Part shown: positions 1 through 11,005 of the stretch, one piece after another
Numbering within the stretch: position 1 is the first letter of the stretch
How the letters are laid out: each line of letters starts with the position of its first letter
NCBI GenBank assembly: GCA_947479455.1
Contig: CANJZE010000008.1
Coordinates: 66,798-130,797, forward strand
Source: Bacteroidota bacterium
GTDB lineage: Bacteria > Bacteroidota > Bacteroidia > Chitinophagales > LD1
Reading direction: 5' to 3'
DNA: 64,000 nucleotides
Made by a program: the position numbers and the translations under genes
Notes under the pieces: generated by a model
The model's input: the letters and a program-made list of their open reading frames with translations, nothing else
What the model was told of the DNA's origin: nothing
Database searches by the model: none

Positions 1-2
1 CA

Positions 3-1034
3 GCAGACGGCAGCAATGAAGACCCTTTTGACCATTTTCTGAAAATGTATGGAGGCTATTTGCCTTCATCAAATTCAAGATGGTGCACCAAAAAATTAAA
101 ACTTGAACCCTTTGAAAAATTTGTCGGTAACGACAATGTAATTTCTTATGTAGGCATTAGAGGTGATGAAGAAAGAGAAGGATATATCTCCCGCAAATCA
201 AACATCCAAAGTATTTTTCCTTTCAGGAAAAATATTTGGAGTGAGGATGTAATTGCCAAAGTTTTATCAAATAATAATTCAAACCAGGTTTTGAATTTAT
301 ACAGCAATATTGCTGCAACAAAAAATTCAAACCGATTTGAAGAACTGTTGAAGCAACCTATCTCTCAAAGTTTTACGCAGACACAGAAACTGAATTTGTT
401 GCTTGACATCAACATCAAAGAATTTAATGCGTTGGTATTTTCATTTCTTAAAGCTACCAATTACCCATTAGCTCAAGAAGAAAATTTTGAATTGATTGAC
501 AACGAAGATATTTTGGTTCGTGACGATATTTTCAGAATCCTTGAAGAAAGTGGAGTAGGAATACCTGCTTATTATAACAAAAATGAGGAATTTAGTTTTG
601 AGTTTAATGGAGAAAAGCATCTATATGGCAGAAGTCGGTCTGGTTGTTTTTTCTGCTTTTTTCAACAAAAAATTGAATGGATTTGGTTATTTGAAAATCA
701 CCTTGAGAAATTTCTTTTAGCAGAACTTTATGAAACCTCAAACGGCAACGACTCTTATTTTACATGGATGGACTCTGGCACATTAAGAGAGTTAATAGGA
801 GTGCCAGCGGATATACCGCTATGTAGAACAAAAATAAATAGCATTACAGGTTCGAAAGAAATCGAATGGATAAATGAGGAGGTCTTGAAAATACGTGACA
901 CGACTAAAACAGACAAGGTTAAGATGGAATACATTTTAAAACATAAAAGGAAAACTTCAAATCCAAGCTCGAATTTACTTATTGACATTCTAAGTGAAAC
1001 TGAAGGAGAAGGGTGTGCGGCTTGTTTTATTTAA
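3..1034 (+). CDS. PAPS-reductase-fold DNA sulfur-modification protein (DndC/SspD-like), 5' end truncated by the window edge
   Basis: The frame is open from base 3 upstream of the listed ATG at 45, so the N-terminal PP-loop lies outside the window. Motifs RWCTKKLKLEPF, YVGIRGDEE and GRSRSGCFFCF resemble the PAPS reductase/DndC family. The C-terminus carries CAAC. The gene converges on a dndA/dndD-like operon. Confidence 0.6.
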   Translation, partial: ADGSNEDPFDHFLKMYGGYLPSSNSRWCTKKLKLEPFEKFVGNDNVISYVGIRGDEEREGYISRKSNIQSIFPFRKNIWSEDVIAKVLSNNNSNQVLNLYSNIAATKNSNRFEELLKQPISQSFTQTQKLNLLLDINIKEFNALVFSFLKATNYPLAQEENFELIDNEDILVRDDIFRILEESGVGIPAYYNKNEEFSFEFNGEKHLYGRSRSGCFFCFFQQKIEWIWLFENHLEKFLLAELYETSNGNDSYFTWMDSGTLRELIGVPADIPLCRTKINSITGSKEIEWINEEVLKIRDTTKTDKVKMEYILKHKRKTSNPSSNLLIDILSETEGEGCAACFI

Positions 1035-1048
1035 AAAACCACTATGAC

Positions 1049-2077
1049 ATGAATGTAAAAGTTACCACTTGGAAGGTTTCCAAGCTCTATAAATTTAAGG
1101 ACAAGATTAATGAGCAACCAGTTTATCAGAGAGGTGAGGTATGGAGTCCCAGAAAAAGAAGCATTCTAATTGATTCAATGCTACGAGGAATTGACATTCC
1201 AAAAATCTATTTGAGAAAACTAAATTCAAATGCTCACGAATATGAAGTAGCAGATGGTCAGCAACGGTTGACAGCAATTTACAAGTTCATCGAAAATCAA
1301 TTTGCACTTTTATCAGATGAAGAAAAGGGTTTGAACTTAGATAGAATTGACGGGAAGGTTGTTGGTGGTTTGAAATATGAAAAACTTAATAAAGATTTTA
1401 AAGCAAGATTTGATAATTACGAAACAACAATTGCAATTATTGAACATGCAACTAATCAAGAGATACGAACTTTGTTCGGCAGATTACAAGAAGGTGAGCC
1501 ATTAGTGCCAGCGGAAAAGAGGAATGCAATCATTAGCACCTTAGGACATCTTATAGATAACTTTGCAATGAATCATAGCTTCTTCACAAATTCTCGAATC
1601 CCTGCGAATAGATTTAAAAGGCAAGATTACATGAGCAATGCCTTAGCTTTAATTCTCTATAAGAATGCAGAATCACTAAAGGCAGAGTTGTTACTAAAAA
1701 TGTATTTGGATAAAAGTTTAGTTGTAAGTCAAGCACAGCAAAAAAAAATAGCAATAATACTTGACAAATTAGCTGAGATAGATTCAAACAGTTCGACACG
1801 CATCTATAAAAAGTATCACTTCACTGATATGTTTTATTTTCTGTTTGAAAACTATAGTAGAATTAGTCAAATGAACCCAAAGTTAATTGCAAAAAAATTC
1901 GATAAGTTTGAGCAACAGCGGTTGGCTAATTACAACAAACCTGAATTGTTAATTGAAAACAGACAGCCAACGCCAGAAGAAAAAGATTTGTATGAATACA
2001 TAATTGCTTTTAGATATAACGGAGCAGAACCTGAAAGCATAACTACCCGACTTCGTGTTTTCACTAATTTATTTTAA
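1049..2077 (+). CDS. DUF262 (ParB-like/GmrSD N-terminal type) domain protein without a DUF1524/HNH domain
   Basis: QPVYQRGEVWS...LIDSMLRGIDIPKIYL...ADGQQRLTAIYKF is the classic DUF262 DGQQR signature. The ATG at 1049 (MNVKV) lies 15 nt after the upstream stop, and the track's GTG at 1013 is less likely. No nuclease domain follows. Confidence 0.75.
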   Translation: MNVKVTTWKVSKLYKFKDKINEQPVYQRGEVWSPRKRSILIDSMLRGIDIPKIYLRKLNSNAHEYEVADGQQRLTAIYKFIENQFALLSDEEKGLNLDRIDGKVVGGLKYEKLNKDFKARFDNYETTIAIIEHATNQEIRTLFGRLQEGEPLVPAEKRNAIISTLGHLIDNFAMNHSFFTNSRIPANRFKRQDYMSNALALILYKNAESLKAELLLKMYLDKSLVVSQAQQKKIAIILDKLAEIDSNSSTRIYKKYHFTDMFYFLFENYSRISQMNPKLIAKKFDKFEQQRLANYNKPELLIENRQPTPEEKDLYEYIIAFRYNGAEPESITTRLRVFTNLF

Positions 2078-2089
2078 TCATTTAATCAA

Positions 2090-2947
2090 ATGACAAAAGC
2101 TGATTTACCAAAAGAGTTGATTGATAACTTCAAGGATAATTTGGGTGTTTTTTTTGTTGGCGCAGGTTTATCAATTGCAGCAGGTTATCCAACTTGGGAT
2201 GGATTAATCGGTGAACTTATTGCTGAAGCTGATAAGATTTCTTGGATTCCAAAGGGAAAAATAGCTGAGTATAAGAAGTTAATTGGAGACAGTTCTAAAT
2301 TCCTTTTTCTTGCAGAGGAATTAAGAGTAGAATTAGGAAGTCACTTTACAAAATATATGGAACAGCGATTTCAATTCTCTGCTCACAACCACACAAAAAA
2401 TCATGAGTTAATTGTGACTACCGAGAGTAGTTTAGTTGTAACAATAAATTATGACGATTTAATAGAACAAGCATACAATAAGGTTTACGGAAAATATCCA
2501 AACGCTTTTATCTACTCACAAGCAAGAGAGGCAGCAAATAATTTTTGGAAGGATAGATTCTTTATTTTGAAAGCACATGGAGATGCAAAGCGAGATATTG
2601 ACACATTAATACTCTCACAAAAAGATTATCGCAAAACACTTTATCGAGAAGCTGGCTACAGAAGTTTGCTCCAATCCATCTTTACAACTAAATCAATTTT
2701 CTTTGTTGGTGTGTCACTGAATGACCCCGAGTTTAATCAGCTACTTGATTTCCTACATGACTCATATCATGGTGGAGGACCTACACACTATCTCTTAATT
2801 GAAAAGCAAAAAAGTATGGAAACAATATCGAGAAGGTATTTTGATGATTTCAATATTCAGACCATAACCTATGATAATGCAAAAGGTGATTATGCTGAAC
2901 TCACAAAGACATTAGAAGTTCTTAATTCTGAATCTCCAAGAAAATAA
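2090..2947 (+). CDS. SIR2_2-family (defence-type SIR2, putative NADase) protein
   Basis: Motifs FFVGAGLSIAAGYPTWDGLI, TINYDDLIEQA, LKAHGD and FFVGVSLNDPEF match the SIR2_2 pattern seen in ThsA/DSR-type proteins. The gene starts 13 nt after the DUF262 stop. Confidence 0.8.
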   Translation: MTKADLPKELIDNFKDNLGVFFVGAGLSIAAGYPTWDGLIGELIAEADKISWIPKGKIAEYKKLIGDSSKFLFLAEELRVELGSHFTKYMEQRFQFSAHNHTKNHELIVTTESSLVVTINYDDLIEQAYNKVYGKYPNAFIYSQAREAANNFWKDRFFILKAHGDAKRDIDTLILSQKDYRKTLYREAGYRSLLQSIFTTKSIFFVGVSLNDPEFNQLLDFLHDSYHGGGPTHYLLIEKQKSMETISRRYFDDFNIQTITYDNAKGDYAELTKTLEVLNSESPRK

Positions 2948-3025
2948 GTTTGAGAACAAAAGATAATTCAACGGTAAATCGATAAAATAGTTGTCGCTAA
3001 TATCAAAATAAACAACCCCTACTTT

Positions 3026-3658
3026 TTATTTCGCCTCGCCTTTTTTCTTCGGCTTTGCTTTACTCTTTGCTACTTTTTTCCCCACAACTTTTTTCGTCAC
3101 CTCAGGTTCAGCAGTTTCTTTCTTCATCTTAACAGTTTGAATTTTACTATCTAAAATCATTGCGAGAAAAGAAGTCGGTTGCAAGAACAGGTTGGAATTT
3201 TCTTCCAACTTTTCTTTTATCAGTGTCAGCCCTCCATTAGTGTATGATTCTACTATTTGAATCAACTCCTTCACAGCATCCTTTTCGCTCACATCCCCTT
3301 TTTCAAGAGCAAGAAAATCAAATTTTGATTTCGCCACCACCGCAGCAAACATGAACTCCTGCAAAATCGTGAAGTCGGTTCTATCAAGCCGACCTCCTTT
3401 GCTTCCCCAGTGCTGAATAGCATGACTGAAATCAACCTTCTTTGTTCCTTCAGGAATAGGTAGAAATTCATCATTGTAAAGACCGAGAAAGAAAGCATAC
3501 ATATACAGTTCATAGTTGTTACTGAAATGTTTTCCCAAGTCAACTTTTGATTTTTCAGAACCACCGAATTTTTTGGTTAAAGAATCGAACAGGGGTTCTC
3601 TAAATTCCTCACTGTATTTCGGAATTTGTGTTTTCCATTTATCGAAAAGATTTTCCAT
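3026..3658 (-). CDS. Hypothetical protein, last gene of the dndA-dndD-like operon (possible dnd system-associated protein) with a Lys-rich C-terminal tail
   Basis: A 210-aa ORF starts 2 nt after the stop of the SMC-like ATPase gene. The tail reads KKVVGKKVAKSKAKPKKKGEAK. The family name rests only on recollection of dnd-associated proteins in Bacteroidetes. Confidence 0.45.
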   Translation of the reverse strand: MENLFDKWKTQIPKYSEEFREPLFDSLTKKFGGSEKSKVDLGKHFSNNYELYMYAFFLGLYNDEFLPIPEGTKKVDFSHAIQHWGSKGGRLDRTDFTILQEFMFAAVVAKSKFDFLALEKGDVSEKDAVKELIQIVESYTNGGLTLIKEKLEENSNLFLQPTSFLAMILDSKIQTVKMKKETAEPEVTKKVVGKKVAKSKAKPKKKGEAK

Positions 3659-3660
3659 AG

Positions 3661-5814
3661 TTATAGAGTTATTACCTGTGTATTTAAAGTGCTTAAATCT
3701 TTTTTATCGAACGGTCTTTCTAAGAAAATCCAAAACGCTTTGTCTCTTTTCACATCGCTAAATTCTTTTCTCACTCCCAGTTTCTTTGTCTTTTCGTTGA
3801 TAGTCAAGAAATCTTTTATCAAAAGAATTTTCTGATTTCCGGTTTCATAAATCAGGTTAAGGAATTGCGATGTTTTTGTTTCTCCGAAAGAAGAAGTTGG
3901 AGCATCAAAAATCATCGGATAACTTTCCTCTCTAAGTTCAGTAGCCAGTTCAGAAATTGCAAACAAAATTGAAATGTGCATTGAAGTTAGAAGCGATTGA
4001 TTAGGCATGTAAAAAATTTTCCCATCTGCTTCTTGTAATTCAATTTTTACAACCACTTTTCCTGCTGACATTTTCTTGTTGAACACAATCGTTCCAGTGA
4101 ACGATTCAATATTTATTTCTTCAAAGATTTTGTTGGACTTACTTTGAAGCATATCAATAAACTCATCAAACTTTCGCTCCTTGGTGTCATTGAAAATAAT
4201 TTCAATGTCGCGCAGTATCTCTCTTGTTTTAATCAGGAAATTATTTGCCGTCTTAGTATCAATGTTATCCTTTTCAATCTTCCGTTGTTTCAATTCATCA
4301 TCAACAGATTTCAATTGACCTTTATTGTAATTCAGGTCGCGATTGAATGTAGCCAAGTCCTTTTGCCATCCAGAATAATTCTTCAACACACTTCCAAGTT
4401 TCTCAGCACCAACATTCGAACTGCCAACAATTTTTTCACGCTCTAAAATTTCCTTATCTAATTTTTGTTGAAGGTCTTCCAAATCTTCTTTTCGTTTCTT
4501 GTTAAATTCAAACAGGTCTTTAATGGTTTTTTTTACCCCCCTCAAATTGGCAAGATTGTCTTCATGGCTCACTCCCAAATTGAACATTCGTGTTAGGAAG
4601 TCATTCTTGAAAAGTATTTCGTCTTCAGCATTTTCTGCTTCCTCTGGCACTTGACTTTTCAGATATTCTTCAAGTCGTTTCATCATGAAAGTATGTGCAT
4701 GACTTCCTTTCGGAGCAGCACGGTCACATACCTTACACCACTTATCCTTAAGCATTTCTTCCATGTGTGCCTTTGATGGAACACCAGTCGGTAATGGAAT
4801 TGAGTTATTCAGGAGTTCTGCTTTCATTCTCTTCTTACCTTCCTTAATTCCTATTTCCGTATCAAACGCTTTTTCTAATTCTCTTTTCCTGCTTCCTAAC
4901 TCAGCCACCTTTTGAGAAAATTCATGATGAATTTTTTCAAAGTTCACCAGTATCCAATTTTGGTCAAACAATGCAGTTGTGTAGTTTTCATCAATTTTGT
5001 TTGAAGTAACTGTAATCTGGTCTTCTATTTTTTTGATTCGGTCATTGATAGTTTCTAATGCCTCCGCATTCGTAACATATTTTTCTGCTTCCTGAATATT
5101 GTCTTCGGTCTTTCCAATTTGTTGCTCCAACGAATTGATGAACACAGTGATTTTGTTTCTATCGCCCGACAATCTGAAAATTTCTGCTTCCAATCGCTTA
5201 TACTCTTTCTGATTTTGGCTGTCGCTTCGTGCAGCATCATCAACTGCTTTCTCCGCTTTCTCTCGAAGAAACTCGCCTTTTTCAGAATACTTTTCATAAT
5301 GCTTTGCACTTGAAAAAGAGTTAATCAGATTGAGCAACGCATCATCATTCTTGAAAATATTCAAATCAGCTTCGCCCTTAAACATTGAATATCTTCTAAT
5401 CGTTTGAGGGAAAATTCTGTCTAACAAAATATGTCCATCAACTTTACTTCGCTCACCTGCCTTGTTTTCTTCAATCCCTTCAACAGAATAATTCAAAGTT
5501 GAAAAATCATTGTCTTCAAGTTTCTTAACGATAAATGATTTTGATATTGTTTTCTTTTCATCGTATTGTTCAACAGTAATAGAAACTCGCACAGGAAATT
5601 GTTCTCCACTTTCTGCTTTGGCTAACGCCTTCGCAGAAATAAGCTTTTCTAAACCGCGCTGGTCTCCATTGAATAACCAATCAAGAGCTTCAAAGAATTT
5701 TGTTTTGCCTTCTCCATTTTCGCCCAAGATGATGTTCAATCCATCTGAGAGTTCAAATTCTTTTACCCCATTATAGCAGAGGTAATTTTCTATGCTAACT
5801 TTTTTGATAATCAT
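3661..5814 (-). CDS. DndD/SspC-like SMC/Rad50-type ATPase
   Basis: The N-terminus MIIKKVSIENYLCYNG...ILGENGEGKTKFFEALDWLF carries a Walker A (AAA_23 type). A long coiled-coil middle contains CKVCD (a CxxC, zinc-hook-like). The C-terminus carries Walker B MIFDAPTSSFG. Confidence 0.75.
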   Translation of the reverse strand: MIIKKVSIENYLCYNGVKEFELSDGLNIILGENGEGKTKFFEALDWLFNGDQRGLEKLISAKALAKAESGEQFPVRVSITVEQYDEKKTISKSFIVKKLEDNDFSTLNYSVEGIEENKAGERSKVDGHILLDRIFPQTIRRYSMFKGEADLNIFKNDDALLNLINSFSSAKHYEKYSEKGEFLREKAEKAVDDAARSDSQNQKEYKRLEAEIFRLSGDRNKITVFINSLEQQIGKTEDNIQEAEKYVTNAEALETINDRIKKIEDQITVTSNKIDENYTTALFDQNWILVNFEKIHHEFSQKVAELGSRKRELEKAFDTEIGIKEGKKRMKAELLNNSIPLPTGVPSKAHMEEMLKDKWCKVCDRAAPKGSHAHTFMMKRLEEYLKSQVPEEAENAEDEILFKNDFLTRMFNLGVSHEDNLANLRGVKKTIKDLFEFNKKRKEDLEDLQQKLDKEILEREKIVGSSNVGAEKLGSVLKNYSGWQKDLATFNRDLNYNKGQLKSVDDELKQRKIEKDNIDTKTANNFLIKTREILRDIEIIFNDTKERKFDEFIDMLQSKSNKIFEEINIESFTGTIVFNKKMSAGKVVVKIELQEADGKIFYMPNQSLLTSMHISILFAISELATELREESYPMIFDAPTSSFGETKTSQFLNLIYETGNQKILLIKDFLTINEKTKKLGVRKEFSDVKRDKAFWIFLERPFDKKDLSTLNTQVITL

Positions 5815-6044
5815 ATTGCTGTTTGATTAAGGTGTTGAAGAATTAAATTTCTTAATTCCTTATCAGGCATCACTTGCGTTGCTTCTAAATTTTCTACAAT
5901 TAATGCAATTGCTTTCACAATAGGCATATCAGATTTAATAGCCTCACGAATATTATTCGGCATATCAGCAGCTTTAATTTTGTATTTGCTTTTCAAAATA
6001 TCATGCTTCAAAAAACTTTGTAGAATATCATCTTTTCGTGCCAT
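5811..6044 (-). CDS. Small hypothetical protein (77 aa) in the DndE position
   Basis: It is translationally coupled to the downstream ATPase gene (ATGA overlap at 5811-5814). No recognisable motif was seen. Confidence 0.4.
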   Translation of the reverse strand: MARKDDILQSFLKHDILKSKYKIKAADMPNNIREAIKSDMPIVKAIALIVENLEATQVMPDKELRNLILQHLNQTAI

Positions 6045-6056
6045 AGCAATAGAGTT

Positions 6057-8294
6057 TTAATTAGAAATCAAATCATTCAAATTTAAGTTGTAGTAATCGA
6101 GAATATCTTTCAGTTCTTCGTAAGTATCAATTTTATTCATTGACAATTCTGAGAAGTCAACTACTCTTTCCAATTCTTTTTTGATAAGGTTACGCTCCAT
6201 TCCAAAATTTCCTTCACCGTCACTTATTTTCGGAACAACAACCAAATCGTGAATCACTGCATGAACTTTATCTTTATGATTTCTCAAAACCCTTCCACGC
6301 CTTTGAATAAATTGTCTTGGATTACCGGTGCTTGAACAGAATACTGCTAATTCAGAACGAGGAACATCAACCCCTTCATCCAAGCATTTCATAGAAGTTA
6401 AAACATGAACAGTTCCATTTTCAAAGTCATTTATTATTTCATTTCTGTTTTGAGTATTTGAAGTGTATTGTTTTACCAAGATTGAATCATTAGTATCTTT
6501 CACAATTCTGGTGTATTCGTTTATGAGATTCGTTTCCTCCTCATCTTCTTCATACTCATCCACCTTACTGTAATCAGGTTCTAATCCTTCGGGAACATAA
6601 ACCAAAGTGTATTTCAAATTTCCTCTACGTTTAAATTCATTTTTCATTATTTTTTTGAAAACATCCTTCTTGTTAAATGCCTTATGAATAATTCTCTTTC
6701 GCTTCAACAATAAATTCTCAACTTCCTTACACTCTTTGTAGCGACCAGTTTTAGCATCCAAATATGTTAAGAGTTGTTTTGAAATCTTGATATACTCTAC
6801 GAGTTCTTCATCAGTCAAATAAACAATGTGAGGGAAGTAAGTGTATTTACAAAGCCAGCCAACCTCCAACGCTTGCTTCATCGAATAAGAATATATGAAA
6901 GGTGCTTTATCATTGAAGAACGATTCAATAGCAGTGTTCCCCTCCAAATCATATTTCCTATTTGGTGTTGCAGACAAACCGATTCTTTTTTCTAAGTGAA
7001 TACTGGGTAACAGTTTTGAAATACTTGGCGAACCCATATTGTGAACTTCATCAGCAATCAATAATGTTTCCTTCGGCAACAACTTGAAATGACTTTGAAA
7101 TTTTGGTCTTGTCAGCGAAGCATAAGTTACAATAACAATAAAGTTTGTGTTCGTCAACTTCGTTGCCGTATTGAAGAAAGCAAGATTATCACTCCAATTT
7201 TCCTTTGAACTAACTGTAATGACATTACTAAAATTGAATTTAGCACATTCCTTTTTCCACTGCTCCAACAACGCTGTTGTTGGCACTGTAATAATTGCTT
7301 TGTAGGTATTTGTTTCTCTATAAAGATTCAGCAAACAATTAAGAGAAGTAATAGTTTTCCCTGTTCCAGTTGCCATTGCAAAAACTCCTTTGTAGCCATT
7401 GCCAACCCAAGCATCATAAGCAGCAATTTGATATTCTCTCGCTCCCTCAGGATATGGGAATCTTGGTTCTCTCTGAATTTCTTCAATGTGGGTAATCGCT
7501 TTCTCAAAACTTTTTCTCACTCCTTTGTTTTCTAACACCCGACTTTTTCTCTCAACCAATTCCTTTTCTTTTATCAACAACTCATTAAGTGAAGCGTTTC
7601 CAAATTCCTTTTTGATTGCTATCGAAACATCTTCAACCTCCAAATAATCTACAATGTCTGACTTGCCAGAAAAAACCATTTCGAAAAAACTGTTCTGTCT
7701 GTTTATCATTTTACTTGAACGGCTGTTTTCCCAACTAAGAAATCCGTCTAACTCTTCCAAATTTTCAAGTAACCCAAATGCAGTAAAATTGCAAGATGCT
7801 TTAAAGCCAACCGTATCAACTCCGTCCGAAAATGCTCCTGACTTGTAGTGTGCGATTCCTTTCCCTGTTTTCGGTTTGATGATTTTGATTTGAATTTTTT
7901 CATTTGCAATCAACCATGCAAGGCAATCAAAAAAATGTTTGCCGTAATCATTAAGCGTTCTTTTCAATTGCTTAATGTCTGTCAAGTCAATTGCAATATT
8001 TTCTATATCACCTTCTCTTCCTGCTTTGATTGCATCTCTATCTTCTTGCGACAAAACATTATTTACAACCATTCGCATTGTGCCTCCACTGTAAAGAAAA
8101 CTTGCAAAGCCAAGTGAGAGGACATTGATAGCTGCTGAACTAAAATAGCCAAGCAGCAAATCAAATTTTTTGCTGTTACATAAGCCGTCCATGTAAAATT
8201 GAATAGGTTCGCTTTCACTACCCGTTCTATATGACCTGTCTTCTGACCAATTGACTTGCTTAAGCATAGTTTGTTGTCGACTGTAATGATTCAC
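6057..8294 (-). CDS. PLD-like nuclease domain + SF2 (ResIII/DEAH) helicase, resembling a DNA phosphorothioation system restriction enzyme
   Basis: The N-terminal region has a PLD-like HxK (GIAHYKSGAFSDG). Helicase motifs are FAMATGTGKT, IADEVHN, LSATP and QRRGRVLR. The gene overlaps the upstream cysteine desulfurase stop (alternative start MLKQ at 8267). Confidence 0.75.
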   Translation of the reverse strand: MNHYSRQQTMLKQVNWSEDRSYRTGSESEPIQFYMDGLCNSKKFDLLLGYFSSAAINVLSLGFASFLYSGGTMRMVVNNVLSQEDRDAIKAGREGDIENIAIDLTDIKQLKRTLNDYGKHFFDCLAWLIANEKIQIKIIKPKTGKGIAHYKSGAFSDGVDTVGFKASCNFTAFGLLENLEELDGFLSWENSRSSKMINRQNSFFEMVFSGKSDIVDYLEVEDVSIAIKKEFGNASLNELLIKEKELVERKSRVLENKGVRKSFEKAITHIEEIQREPRFPYPEGAREYQIAAYDAWVGNGYKGVFAMATGTGKTITSLNCLLNLYRETNTYKAIITVPTTALLEQWKKECAKFNFSNVITVSSKENWSDNLAFFNTATKLTNTNFIVIVTYASLTRPKFQSHFKLLPKETLLIADEVHNMGSPSISKLLPSIHLEKRIGLSATPNRKYDLEGNTAIESFFNDKAPFIYSYSMKQALEVGWLCKYTYFPHIVYLTDEELVEYIKISKQLLTYLDAKTGRYKECKEVENLLLKRKRIIHKAFNKKDVFKKIMKNEFKRRGNLKYTLVYVPEGLEPDYSKVDEYEEDEEETNLINEYTRIVKDTNDSILVKQYTSNTQNRNEIINDFENGTVHVLTSMKCLDEGVDVPRSELAVFCSSTGNPRQFIQRRGRVLRNHKDKVHAVIHDLVVVPKISDGEGNFGMERNLIKKELERVVDFSELSMNKIDTYEELKDILDYYNLNLNDLISN

Positions 8295-9411
8295 TAAATA
8301 TTTTTAAAACTTCTTGCACTTCGCTTTCAGTATTAAATCTTCCCAACGAAAACCTAATTGAAGAAAACGCATCATCATCAGACAAAGCCATTGCTTTCAA
8401 AACATGAGAGGGCTCAATAATTGCTGAAGTGCAAGCTGAACCATTTGACACTGCAACATTTTTCATTTTCGCAATTAGCACATTTGCGTCTATACCAGGG
8501 AAACAAATATTGGTGACATTATACATTCTGTCTTGCGTTGAACCATTTACAAATGCCCTATGCAATTTTAGCAACTCACTTTCAAGTTCATCTCTGAGAA
8601 ATAAAATTCTATTTTTATCGTTTCCCATTTCTGCCTTTGCAATCTCACACGCTTTACCCATAGCGACAATTGCAGGAACGTTCAATGTCCCGCTTCGTAA
8701 TCCATTTTCATGTCCACCTCCATGTTGCAAAGCATCCAACTTGATTTTATTTTTCTTCAGCCCTCTTACATACAAAGCTCCAAGCCCTTTTGCGCCATAA
8801 AATTTATGAGCAGAAAAAGTCATTAGGTCAACACCCAATTCAGCTACATCTGTCGCAATTTTCCCAACTGCTTGCGTTGCATCGCTCATCAAAATCGCAC
8901 CTGCATTATGAGTAATATTTGCAATCTCTTTAACCGGTTGTAAAACACCTGTTTCATTATTTGCAAGCATCACACATACAAGAATTGAGTCGCTTCGCAA
9001 TTCGGTCTTCAAATTTTCCAAATTAATCAATCCGTCATTTTTCACAGGAAGATAACTCACATCAAAACCGATTGTTTCGAGATATTTACATGTATCGAGA
9101 ACGGCTTTATGTTCAGTCTCAACAGTAATAATATGTTTGCCTCTACTCTGATTTGCTAAAGCAAATCCTTTCAAAGCAAGATTGATACTTTCAGTAGCCC
9201 CAGAAGTGAAAATGATTTCAGTTGCATCGGCAGAAATTAAATCAGCAATTGTTTCCCGGGATTGGTCAACAGCTTTGGCACTGTTTAACCCAAATTGATG
9301 AATGCTGGAGGAGTTACCATATTGTTTTTCAAAATACGGTAACATCGCATCAAGAACTCTTGAATCTATTTCAGTAGTTGCATTATTATCAAGATAGATA
9401 ATTTCTTTCAT
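8260..9411 (-). CDS. Cysteine desulfurase (NifS/IscS class V aminotransferase; DndA/SspA-like)
   Basis: Motifs IYLDNNATT, FTSGATESINLA, SAHKFYGAKGLGALYV (PLP lysine) and SNGSACTS (catalytic Cys loop). It is the first gene of the minus-strand PT operon. Confidence 0.9.
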   Translation of the reverse strand: MKEIIYLDNNATTEIDSRVLDAMLPYFEKQYGNSSSIHQFGLNSAKAVDQSRETIADLISADATEIIFTSGATESINLALKGFALANQSRGKHIITVETEHKAVLDTCKYLETIGFDVSYLPVKNDGLINLENLKTELRSDSILVCVMLANNETGVLQPVKEIANITHNAGAILMSDATQAVGKIATDVAELGVDLMTFSAHKFYGAKGLGALYVRGLKKNKIKLDALQHGGGHENGLRSGTLNVPAIVAMGKACEIAKAEMGNDKNRILFLRDELESELLKLHRAFVNGSTQDRMYNVTNICFPGIDANVLIAKMKNVAVSNGSACTSAIIEPSHVLKAMALSDDDAFSSIRFSLGRFNTESEVQEVLKIFSESLQSTTNYA

Positions 9412-9514: not shown

Positions 9515-11005
9515 ATGAGTTCTAATAATCTTCACATTCTTTCCAAATCCACTTTCGTCCGTGGCTGTATCTGCAAGAAAAGTCTCTGGCTGTCCAAACA
9601 CAGAAGAGATTTAATTCCGCCCACCCCCGCAGGTCAACAATTTATCTTTGACCAAGGCCACGAGGTCGGCAAACTGGCACGGCAGCTATTTCCTGGTGGT
9701 GTTGACGCAAGTTCTGCTACCCCGTTCGATTACCAACCATCTTTAGAACTTACCCAAAAACTTATTGCCGAAGACAGGCATGTAATTTACGAAGCAGCAT
9801 TTCAACATGATGGTGTGTTAGCGGCACTTGATATTTTGGTAAAGAAAGAAGATGGATGGCATGCGTTCGAGGTGAAATCATCCACGAAGGTTGCTGACAT
9901 AAATGTTACTGATGCAGCACTTCAATATTGGGTGATGCAAAATTCCGGTTTGAAATTGCAGGACATCTCAATCATCCACATCAATAACGAGTATGAAAGA
10001 ACCGGTGAAATTGAACCCGAAAAATTATTCAAAACCGAATCAATTCTTTATTTGGTTCTTGCTTTACAAGATGAAATTACGGAGCAAGTAAAAGAATTAA
10101 AGAGGGTTGCTATGGATAAAAGCTGTCCGGTTGTTCCTAACGGAAAGCAATGCACCACACCTTGGGCTTGTTCTTTCAAAGACCATTGCTGGAACGAATC
10201 GAAGGTGCCGGATGAATCTATTCTTGATTTCGATTTATACAGAAAGGAAGAACGCTTCAAATTGTTTCATTCCGGCATAAAGCAGATTGCAGATGTTCCT
10301 AATTGGGAGCTGTTGAAAGTTCCATACAATTATGTAGTTGAAGCACACCGGAATAAAGGCATTTATGTAGATGACATTCAACTTAAAAAATTCATGGAAG
10401 GCATAACCTATCCAATCTACTTCATGGATTTTGAAACTGTGCGCTTTGCGGTTCCTAAATTTAATAACTCCTATCCATACGAGCAGATACCGAATCAGTA
10501 TTCAATTCATGTTTTAGATAATGAAAATGCGGAACCGGTTCATCTCTCTTATCTGGCTGACCCTGCTAAAGAGTTCAGAATGGATTTTACAGAAACACTT
10601 CTCAAAGATTTAGGCAACAACGGAACTATTCTTGTTTACAATGTCTCCTTCGAGCGTTCAAGATTAAAAATGCTGGCATTTCTGTTTCCGCAATATGAAT
10701 CGCAAATAAACTCTGTAATAGAACGATTGTTAGACTTGGCATTCCCGTTCCAAAAAAAGTTTTTTTACGACCACAAATTTTCCTGCTCATATTCCATAAA
10801 AGATGTATTGCCGGTGCTTGCTCCTGATTTGAGTTACAAAAATCTGACCGTTAACAACGGTGACGATGCCAGCATAATATTTATGAAAATGATGGAAGAG
10901 CCTGATAAAGACTGGTCAGCCGAAAGAAAAAACCTACTCGAATACTGCGGATTGGATACTTGGGCGATGGTTCGGATTTTCCGGTATCTGAATACGATTG
11001 TATGA
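9515..11005 (+). CDS. DUF2779-type protein with an N-terminal Cas4/RecB-like nuclease region
   Basis: The 496-aa product has an N-terminus SKSTFVRGCICKKSLWL, a Cys cluster CPVVPNGKQCTTPWACSFKDHCW and a C-terminal FMDFETV... region, all typical of DUF2779 proteins. Confidence 0.6.
   Translation: MSSNNLHILSKSTFVRGCICKKSLWLSKHRRDLIPPTPAGQQFIFDQGHEVGKLARQLFPGGVDASSATPFDYQPSLELTQKLIAEDRHVIYEAAFQHDGVLAALDILVKKEDGWHAFEVKSSTKVADINVTDAALQYWVMQNSGLKLQDISIIHINNEYERTGEIEPEKLFKTESILYLVLALQDEITEQVKELKRVAMDKSCPVVPNGKQCTTPWACSFKDHCWNESKVPDESILDFDLYRKEERFKLFHSGIKQIADVPNWELLKVPYNYVVEAHRNKGIYVDDIQLKKFMEGITYPIYFMDFETVRFAVPKFNNSYPYEQIPNQYSIHVLDNENAEPVHLSYLADPAKEFRMDFTETLLKDLGNNGTILVYNVSFERSRLKMLAFLFPQYESQINSVIERLLDLAFPFQKKFFYDHKFSCSYSIKDVLPVLAPDLSYKNLTVNNGDDASIIFMKMMEEPDKDWSAERKNLLEYCGLDTWAMVRIFRYLNTIV

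Follow-up and report, generated by a model that had tools for sequence, protein, structure and literature searches.

A DUF262–SIR2 gene pair as a candidate NAD+-depleting partner of the Ssp DNA phosphorothioation system

Results

Organization of the Locus

We examined a 64,000-nucleotide (nt) stretch of DNA from a Bacteroidota bacterium (contig CANJZE010000008.1 of assembly GCA_947479455.1, forward-strand positions 66,798 to 130,797; hereafter the window), near the start of which a gene for a DUF262 protein and a gene for a stand-alone SIR2 protein lie directly behind a gene of Ssp, a system that modifies the DNA backbone with phosphorothioate (PT). The three genes are closely spaced on the plus strand, with lengths given in amino acids (aa):

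1–1034, plus strand: sspD, a PAPS-reductase-fold ATP pyrophosphatase whose 5' end is lost at the window start (PADLOC SspD model, E = 4.8e-50)
1049–2077, plus strand: DUF262-only gene, 342 aa, ATG at 1049 and TAA at 2075–2077; proposed sensor of DNA and PT state
2090–2947, plus strand: stand-alone SIR2_2 gene, 285 aa, ATG at 2090 and TAA at 2945–2947; proposed NAD+-degrading effector

A gap of 14 nt separates the sspD stop codon (TAA, 1032–1034) from the DUF262 start, and a 12-nt spacer (2078–2089) separates DUF262 from SIR2, which places the SIR2 start codon 13 nt beyond the final base of the preceding stop codon. An initial annotation made from the letters alone had described both genes as directly downstream of a PAPS-reductase-fold gene on the same strand, the first coding for a DUF262-only protein with a DGQQRLT motif and no DUF1524 or HNH domain, and the second, 13 nt later, for a SIR2_2-type protein with intact GAGLS, TINYD and KAHGD motifs. 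The open reading frames (ORFs) and Pfam assignments agree with it on each of these points. Its description of the PAPS-reductase gene as DndC-like does not stand, as the PADLOC SspD model scores far ahead of DndC, which matches only weakly (E = 1e-4); the modification genes here are SspB (DUF4007), SspC and SspD, and a Dnd context was rejected.

The part of the operon beyond the window edge is supplied by an identical locus on a 140-kb contig of a metagenome-assembled genome (MAG; CANIVO010000006.1, GCA_947471435.1), where the gene order is sspB (DUF4007)–sspC (1073 aa)–sspD (409 aa)–DUF262–SIR2, convergent with pbeD–pbeC–pbeB–pbeA–sspA. A promoter and terminator scan of positions 1–3800 found nothing significant within the sspD–DUF262–SIR2 stretch; promoter-like sites were below the shuffle expectation and terminator-like matches fell inside coding regions.

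Conservation of the Pair and Linkage to ssp Genes

The pairing and its genomic context were surveyed by searching a SIR2 profile against one genome per GTDB species, which gave 73 loci that were taken with 10-kb flanks; ORFs were called in these flanks and searched with ten proteins of the reference locus. A DUF262 gene lies immediately upstream of a short SIR2 gene in 47 loci (species genomes), and at least one of sspB, sspC and sspD is found within 10 kb in 44 of the 47, with all three present in 36. Conservation of the pair beside PT genes in related genomes, on which the initial annotation had staked its proposal in advance, is thus what we observe. In two of the three exceptions (L035 and L054), sspFGH lies upstream and the contig breaks off 1.6 kb and 142 bp past SIR2, respectively; since their relatives (L043 and L046–L049) carry sspDCB where these contigs stop, both are uninformative as exceptions. 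The third (L034) contains a degenerate DUF262 remnant.

Controls from the wider SIR2 family behave differently. Eighteen longer SIR2 relatives (about 700 aa) in genomes have neither a DUF262 neighbor nor ssp genes, and 28 of the 29 distant SIR2 loci on viral contigs lack both as well, the scan of IMG/VR having returned no member of the pair family on viral contigs, only distant SIR2 relatives. In the reverse direction, three DUF262 homologues were chosen regardless of SIR2, on contigs absent from the SIR2 list, and all three (P0104 from Polaribacter atrinae, P0106 and P0116) turned out to lie in the order sspB–sspC–sspD–DUF262–SIR2. A separate observation concerns the viral contig IMGVR_UViG_3300038805_000174 (L100:7181–10282), where an unrelated DUF262 gene (392 aa; PADLOC REase_II, 4.5e-89) sits directly upstream of a gene for a 637-aa SIR2 protein with a ThsA-like N-terminus, with no ssp genes in view.

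The two genes are separated by 2–12 nt in database gene calls, and the gap from the pair to sspD or sspH is typically a few to a few tens of nt. Taxa with the pair include Bacteroidota, Alpha- and Betaproteobacteria, Planctomycetota (Aquisphaera), Verrucomicrobiota, Acidobacteriota and Binatia, a spread stated here as at least seven phyla; a short contig of a cyanobacterial MAG (L013) also has a SIR2 gene, at the contig edge. There are at least five gene arrangements across which the linkage persists: the pair follows sspD colinearly (window locus, other Bacteroidota), lies between sspC and sspD (L021), comes directly after sspH of an sspFGH operon and is convergent to sspDCB (Betaproteobacteria), is divergent (L036, L037 and L044), or stands upstream of sspA–BCD (L029 and L041). 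The correlation of pairwise-distance matrices, uncorrected for species phylogeny, is r = 0.93 between DUF262 and SIR2 and 0.75–0.79 between the pair and SspC or SspD, with SspC against SspD giving 0.89 as a benchmark.

The claim that DUF262 and SIR2 form one conserved unit tied to PT genes is borne out by this correlation and by the 44 of 47 loci. As sspBCD is found in only about 3% of genomes (PMC12914056), the linkage does not look like a coincidence of defense islands, and we regard the pair as very probably a dedicated, Ssp-linked two-gene module. Two loci with unusual gene integrity should be mentioned beside this. In an uncultured Flavobacteriaceae MAG (L006:1–15043), SspC, SspA, PbeA and PbeC are each split into several ORFs while DUF262 and SIR2 are intact, and this could reflect either frameshifts introduced by assembly or decay of these ssp and pbe genes. 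In Aminobacter (L025:11037–13866), the Menshen genes NsnA (573 aa, 1e-134) and NsnB (3e-108) lie immediately downstream of the pair, whose own DUF262 gene is split into two ORFs.

Other PT-Dependent Modules Beside the Pair

It is also important to consider which other known PT-dependent restriction modules accompany the pair. Within 10 kb of 45 distinct pair loci, a count that does not include the window locus, we find none in 22, SspFGH in 11, PbeABCD in 10 and SspE in 2; the window locus has PbeABCD as well, in addition to the 10 counted, and 35 of the 45 have no Pbe or SMC gene nearby. The two genuine SspE genes are at L016 (10866–13220) and L021 (11835–14132). The latter locus, from Aquisphaera insulae (L021:4368–14132), has the pair between sspC and sspD and SspE (765 aa) after sspD, so that two different DUF262-based modules occupy one ssp operon. 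Since SspE, SspFGH or PbeABCD can occur together with the pair, it is an additional module and no replacement of SspE. There is room for such modules: 83.9% of 2,678 sspBCD modules were reported to be without sspE or sspFGH, and further restriction partners were predicted (Wang et al., 2021, PMC8092258).

The DUF262 Protein

Pfam assigns a sole domain to the DUF262 protein, GmrSD_N (PF03235; residues 13–162, E = 3.7e-20), and no DUF1524, HNH or other nuclease domain was found in its 342 aa with Pfam, PADLOC or NCBIfam. The motifs QRxxxW (27–32) and ADGQQRLT (68–75, with DGQQR at 69–73) are present, and the residues invariant in the family are Q27-R28...W32, D69-G70-Q71-Q72-R73, R145-L146-Q147 and E156/R158, with conservation reaching the C-terminus. 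The homologues form 277 protein clusters at 90% identity, and their contigs are mostly common to the DUF262 and SIR2 homologue lists.

The AlphaFold2 model has a mean predicted local distance difference test score of 91.8 and shows an alpha/beta ParB-like domain at the N-terminus that leads into an all-helical body. In a Foldseek search the best match was BrxU (7p9k), with the CTPase domains of ParB, Noc and KorB and SspE (6jiv, 7drs) also retrieved; the TM-scores are all low (0.28 for BrxU), which is why the comparison establishes the fold class only and no subfamily. Sequence models are more discriminating. The PADLOC NsnA model matches at 3.6e-33, aligning residues 3–341 to model positions 46–378 of 385, and PD-T4-2_A matches at 3.8e-17, with no PADLOC match to SspE at E < 0.01; for scale, the true SspE proteins of L016 and L021 score 1e-275 and 1e-290. 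Profile alignment with hhalign gives 98.9% probability (E = 1.6e-17, 198 columns) for the DUF262 family against the genuine NsnA of L025, and 41% over 76 columns around QR...DGQQR for the family against true SspE. Neither SspE nor BrxU was retrieved from the PDB by sequence search with the single DUF262 sequence or with the family profile. On these sequence comparisons the DUF262 protein is NsnA-like and not SspE-like.

A truncated or split SspE was accordingly rejected as an identity for this protein, in view of the missing model match, an hhalign likeness confined to the motif, and the co-occurrence of true SspE. The initial annotation had proposed that the nuclease half of an SspE-like protein was exchanged for a separate SIR2 effector. 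The idea of effector exchange is supported by the HNH and kinase relatives described below, but descent from SspE and replacement of SspE are not.

The SIR2 Protein

The 285-aa protein matches SIR2_2 (PF13289) alone in Pfam (E = 5.5e-26) and amounts to a bare SIR2 domain that lacks a sensor. Its motifs read VGAGLS, TINYD and KAHGD; G24-A25-G26-x-S28, T118-x-N120-Y121-D122 and H163-G164-D165 do not vary among 18 homologues whose identity goes as low as 28%, in keeping with the earlier description of the motifs as intact. The homologues amount to 107 protein clusters at 90% identity. Family sizes, the confident DUF262 model and the invariant SIR2 residues together mark both genes as real. PADLOC matches it to ThsA (7.7e-27), LmuA (4.8e-24) and Dsr1 (2.3e-17), while the family profile retrieves from the PDB ThsA (6lhx, 5e-32), KomC (8zsf, 2.6e-25) and DSR2 (2e-24), and also FAM118B. 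N120 and H163 align with the TTNYD and KMHGD motifs of ThsA, where we take the catalytic equivalents to be N112 and H152. These matches place the protein in the SIR2_2 NADase group (ThsA, DSR2, KomC) and not among the classical sirtuins, and we infer that it hydrolyzes NAD+.

Sister Modules With Other Effectors

An exhaustive hidden Markov model search with the DUF262 family profile against 1.84 billion representatives returned 388 proteins at E < 1e-30, of which the family proper accounts for about 50 representatives of roughly 340 aa. The nearest relatives are 405–435 aa long and match the whole profile (positions 1–344), and those scanned bear a fused C-terminal HNH endonuclease domain (PF01844). 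These DUF262–HNH genes are found at the end of sspC–sspD–DEAD helicase–HATPase_c_3–(PLDc_2-like) operons in two of the two cases with readable contigs (L085:1–9269 and the JGI 3300072015 contig with P0387), and may represent another uncharacterized multi-gene Ssp restriction module.

A third variant has a paralogous NsnA-like DUF262 protein of about 372 aa followed by a Ser/Thr protein-kinase gene (Pfam Pkinase). The order sspB–sspC–sspD–DUF262–Pkinase is present in all three sampled genomes (Dyadobacter sandarakinus CP056775, CP051246 and Aquimarina sp. M1), and at L014 the kinase module stands in tandem with the SIR2 one, between sspD and the DUF262–SIR2 pair. The modules are located as follows:

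L014:6761–8912: DUF262–kinase module
L082:8001–10140: DUF262–kinase module, directly after sspBCD
L083:8001–10035: DUF262–kinase module, directly after sspBCD
L084:8001–10146: DUF262–kinase module, directly after sspBCD

With 669 clusters at 90% identity for its DUF262 paralogue, the kinase variant appears to be commoner than the SIR2 variant, and no account of it was found in the searchable literature. In several Bacteroidota islands (minus strand at L080:11913–14408, L081:8789–11284, L083:10147–12639 and L084:10152–12650), a protein of about 830 aa that matches only the GHKL ATPase domain HATPase_c_3, and that weakly, is encoded convergently just downstream of the SIR2 and kinase variants and may be a further conserved component.

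The fact that the same DUF262 body is paired beside ssp genes with a fused HNH domain, a separate SIR2 protein or a separate kinase means that it can be viewed as a sensor with interchangeable effectors. A broader proposal, which we advance tentatively and rate slightly below an even chance, is that the whole ParB-like DUF262 clade is dedicated to Ssp with exchangeable effectors (SIR2 NADase, Ser/Thr kinase, fused HNH), and that PT is read out by abortive infection as well.

Neighboring Genes

The genes that face the pair in the window form an sspA–pbeABCD operon on the minus strand, in which pbeD is the last gene and faces SIR2; listed after them is the plus-strand gene that flanks sspA:

3026–3658, minus strand: pbeD-like gene, 210 aa, in the position after pbeC in the conserved cluster (TIGR04062 dnd_assoc_4, weak, E = 0.0021)
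3661–5814, minus strand: pbeC, an SMC/ABC-type ATPase, 717 aa (PADLOC PbeC 7.8e-16, LmuB 1.8e-15; Pfam AAA_23, AAA_15)
5811–6044, minus strand: small pbeB-like gene, 77 aa, kept between pbeA and pbeC in related loci; no family match
6057–8294, minus strand: pbeA, a helicase of the "DNA phosphorothioation system restriction enzyme" family (PADLOC PbeA E = 0, 1099 bits)
8260–9411, minus strand: sspA, an IscS-type cysteine desulfurase, 383 aa (PADLOC SspA 7.8e-160, DndA 4.3e-159; Pfam Aminotran_5 1.7e-82)
9515–11005, plus strand: DUF2779 protein, 496 aa, with Cas4-like and RNase_H-like matches (NCBIfam UU173 family, below cut-off)

For pbeA, the database gene call starts at 8267 (736 aa), NCBIfam TIGR04095 (dnd_restrict_1) matches at 2e-121 but under its curated cut-off, and Pfam finds ResIII, DEAD and Helicase_C. 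The cysteine desulfurase SspA is the sulfur donor for PT. The DUF2779 gene, which flanks sspA, is also kept in the identical contigs L001 and L004.

Operons with ssp genes and a DUF262-effector module adjoin resolvase, integrase or excisionase genes at L001:872–4155, L080:18040–19826, L082:13094–14314 and L084:14095–15882, with a DNA methylase gene also adjoining in L001. The presence of these recombination genes suggests that such operons move as mobile islands.

Discussion

Comparison With Known Systems

The pair shares features with several characterized systems without belonging to any of them. It resembles SspABCD–SspE (Xiong 2020; Gao 2022) in that sspA, sspB, sspC and sspD are present and an effector-coupled DUF262 gene with DGQQR stands at the 3' end of sspBCD. 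SspE, however, is a single polypeptide, about 770 aa long, whose C-terminal DUF1524 (His-Me finger) domain nicks phage DNA, whereas here a 342-aa protein is accompanied by a separate SIR2 protein and the predicted outcome is NAD+ depletion and abortive infection; the DUF262 protein falls outside the SspE family both on sequence and for want of DUF1524. The likeness to Menshen (NsnABC) is closer at the level of the sensor, which is NsnA-like over its full length with a ParB-DUF262 domain and a ParBDB/helical DNA-binding body, and at the level of logic, a sensor with a separate effector as proposed for Menshen (PMC12065111). In place of the NsnB ABC-ATPase and the NsnC inPIN nuclease, neither of which has a match at the window locus, there is SIR2, and linkage to sspBCD is not a Menshen feature; membership in Menshen was rejected on the missing NsnB and NsnC.

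Among systems with SIR2 proteins (Thoeris ThsA, DSR1/DSR2, SIR2-HerA, short pAgo-SIR2, Kongming KomC and Lamassu-SIR2), the SIR2_2 domain with its GAG, N and H motifs is shared, and KomC is likewise a bare SIR2 protein that must be controlled by partner proteins. The partner here is instead a ParB-like DUF262 NTPase, the context is a DNA-backbone modification system, and the pair comes without SLOG, pAgo, HerA, SMC or cyclic-nucleotide machinery. Lamassu itself (LmuA-SIR2 with the SMC protein LmuB) was considered and rejected: the SIR2 protein matches the LmuA model only through its SIR2 domain, and the SMC-like gene scores as PbeC, belongs to a separate, convergent operon on the opposite strand and is missing at most pair loci. 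GmrSD and BrxU share the DUF262 NTPase with a helical body, BrxU being the best fold match and DUF262–HNH fusions the nearest sequence relatives, but the locus has no fused nuclease and no DUF1524, and the host DNA itself is modified, so a simple logic of cutting modified DNA is impossible for the pair. SspFGH and PbeABCD occupy the same niche beside sspBCD, yet have no sequence relationship to the pair; SspFGH damages DNA, and Pbe has helicase and ATPase components.

Proposed Mechanism

The reading that we favor, with moderate confidence and on comparative grounds, is that the pair is a PT-coupled, NAD+-depleting abortive-infection module, an accessory partner on the restriction side of SspABCD that would stand beside SspE, SspFGH and PbeABCD. 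The SIR2 protein, having no sensor, needs a partner, and its only invariant partner is the DUF262 protein. This protein would be an NsnA/GmrS-type, ParB-like NTPase that binds DNA through its helical body and reads both DNA and PT state. PT sites on host DNA would trigger NTP hydrolysis and release of the sensor, which amounts to a reset, while on long PT-free invading DNA the sensor–DNA complexes would persist and turn on the partner SIR2 protein; hydrolysis of NAD+ would then arrest or kill the infected cell ahead of phage release. A precedent is SspE, in which PT recognition by DUF262 stimulates NTP hydrolysis and a conformational change (PMC10952713, summarizing Gao 2022; PMC13251355). The physical coupling of the two proteins, the dependence on PT and its direction (license vs. 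protection) are what we infer from this arrangement.

Several points weigh against this reading. PT sensing is not readable from the sequence of the DUF262 protein, and its DUF262 domain is so remote from the one in SspE that the PT-binding residues of SspE cannot be mapped onto it. Tying an indiscriminate NADase to a mark permanently present on host DNA requires additional control logic, which is postulated here. The DUF262–SIR2 pair of the viral contig L100, with no ssp genes in view, means that such coupling does not by itself require PT, and it may have arisen independently of PT systems. Lastly, the correlations of the distance matrices carry no correction for species phylogeny.

Alternative Explanations

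The same linkage evidence would also serve a guard or addiction module, in which DUF262 monitors the presence of PT or the integrity of SspBCD and frees SIR2 when modification fails, for example through phage inhibition or loss of ssp; the pair would then be toxic without PT, as is reported for SspFGH. This reading gains from the Betaproteobacteria, where the pair follows sspFGH directly in one operon, from the toxicity of SspFGH to cells lacking PT (PMC8092258), and from the pair embedded in the modification operon of L021. Sequence does not discriminate it from the PT-reset model, with which it overlaps since both predict activation on PT-free DNA, and the pair co-occurs with SspE, which uses PT-licensed logic. 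We consider the guard module unlikely, though worth keeping in mind. A less probable explanation still is an autonomous, type-IV-like defense system that senses modified or unusual phage DNA, depletes NAD+ and merely hitch-hikes with ssp in defense islands. DUF262 proteins do sense other DNA modifications in GmrSD and BrxU (PMC10952713), the unrelated pair on L100 lacks ssp genes, and loci lie in mobile islands with integrases or resolvases. Hitch-hiking does not, however, give the specificity seen here: 44 of 47 loci are linked to sspBCD, itself in only about 3% of genomes (PMC12914056), across the stated phyla and through all the rearrangements, with the pair typically close to sspD or sspH (14 nt from sspD in the window), with a pair between sspC and sspD in L021, and with HNH and kinase sister variants that are ssp-linked as well.

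The least probable explanation, which we regard as quite improbable, is housekeeping control, with DUF262 as a DndB-like limiter of PT frequency or ssp transcription and SIR2 adjusting the Ssp enzymes as a protein deacylase or ADP-ribosyltransferase. Such a role would fit the precedent of DndB, an NTPase of the ParB superfamily by which dnd is regulated (PMC10853773), the lack of any assigned regulator in Ssp operons, and the position of the pair within the modification operon or at its end. Yet the motif is DGQQR and not DGQHR, PADLOC finds no DndB match in the DUF262 protein, and separate DndB-like genes are present at L010, L024 and L029 (scores 1e-14 to 1e-22); SIR2 belongs with the NADases and not the classical sirtuins, and exchangeable partners such as an HNH nuclease or a Ser/Thr kinase are typical effectors, not regulators. 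The initial annotation had offered as its own alternative a DndB-like regulator beside an independent SIR2 gene, which is unlikely for the same reasons of motif and match and because the two genes are never separate.

Implications

Neither the DUF262–SIR2 pair nor SIR2 in Ssp or Dnd neighborhoods was found in the searchable literature, which included a domain survey of Menshen, the paper on SspFGH and recent reappraisals by comparative genomics of Dnd, BREX and BREX type 4, with subscription-only papers (e.g., Xiong 2020 in Nature Microbiology) outside its reach; the remark that the combination is undescribed holds within that literature. What looks new, as judged from gene content, is PT-based Ssp defense with a further sensor–effector partner. 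PT-based defense is now explained by three or four nuclease-type partners (DndFGH, SspE, SspFGH and PbeABCD), and the DUF262–SIR2 module, which is small (two genes, 1.9 kb) and stands beside a defined modification operon, is together with its kinase and HNH sisters a candidate for the missing partners of sspBCD clusters. If the broader proposal of an Ssp-dedicated DUF262 clade is correct, DUF262-effector modules would be part of the missing restriction partners for the roughly 84% of sspBCD clusters that now count as orphans, and an epigenetic mark in the DNA backbone would be read not by DNA cutting alone, with NAD+ depletion and phosphorylation as additional outputs. The DUF262–SIR2 module would also be the first link of a self-marking DNA modification system to an NAD+-depleting suicide effector, in which restriction-modification and abortive infection, usually kept apart, would merge.

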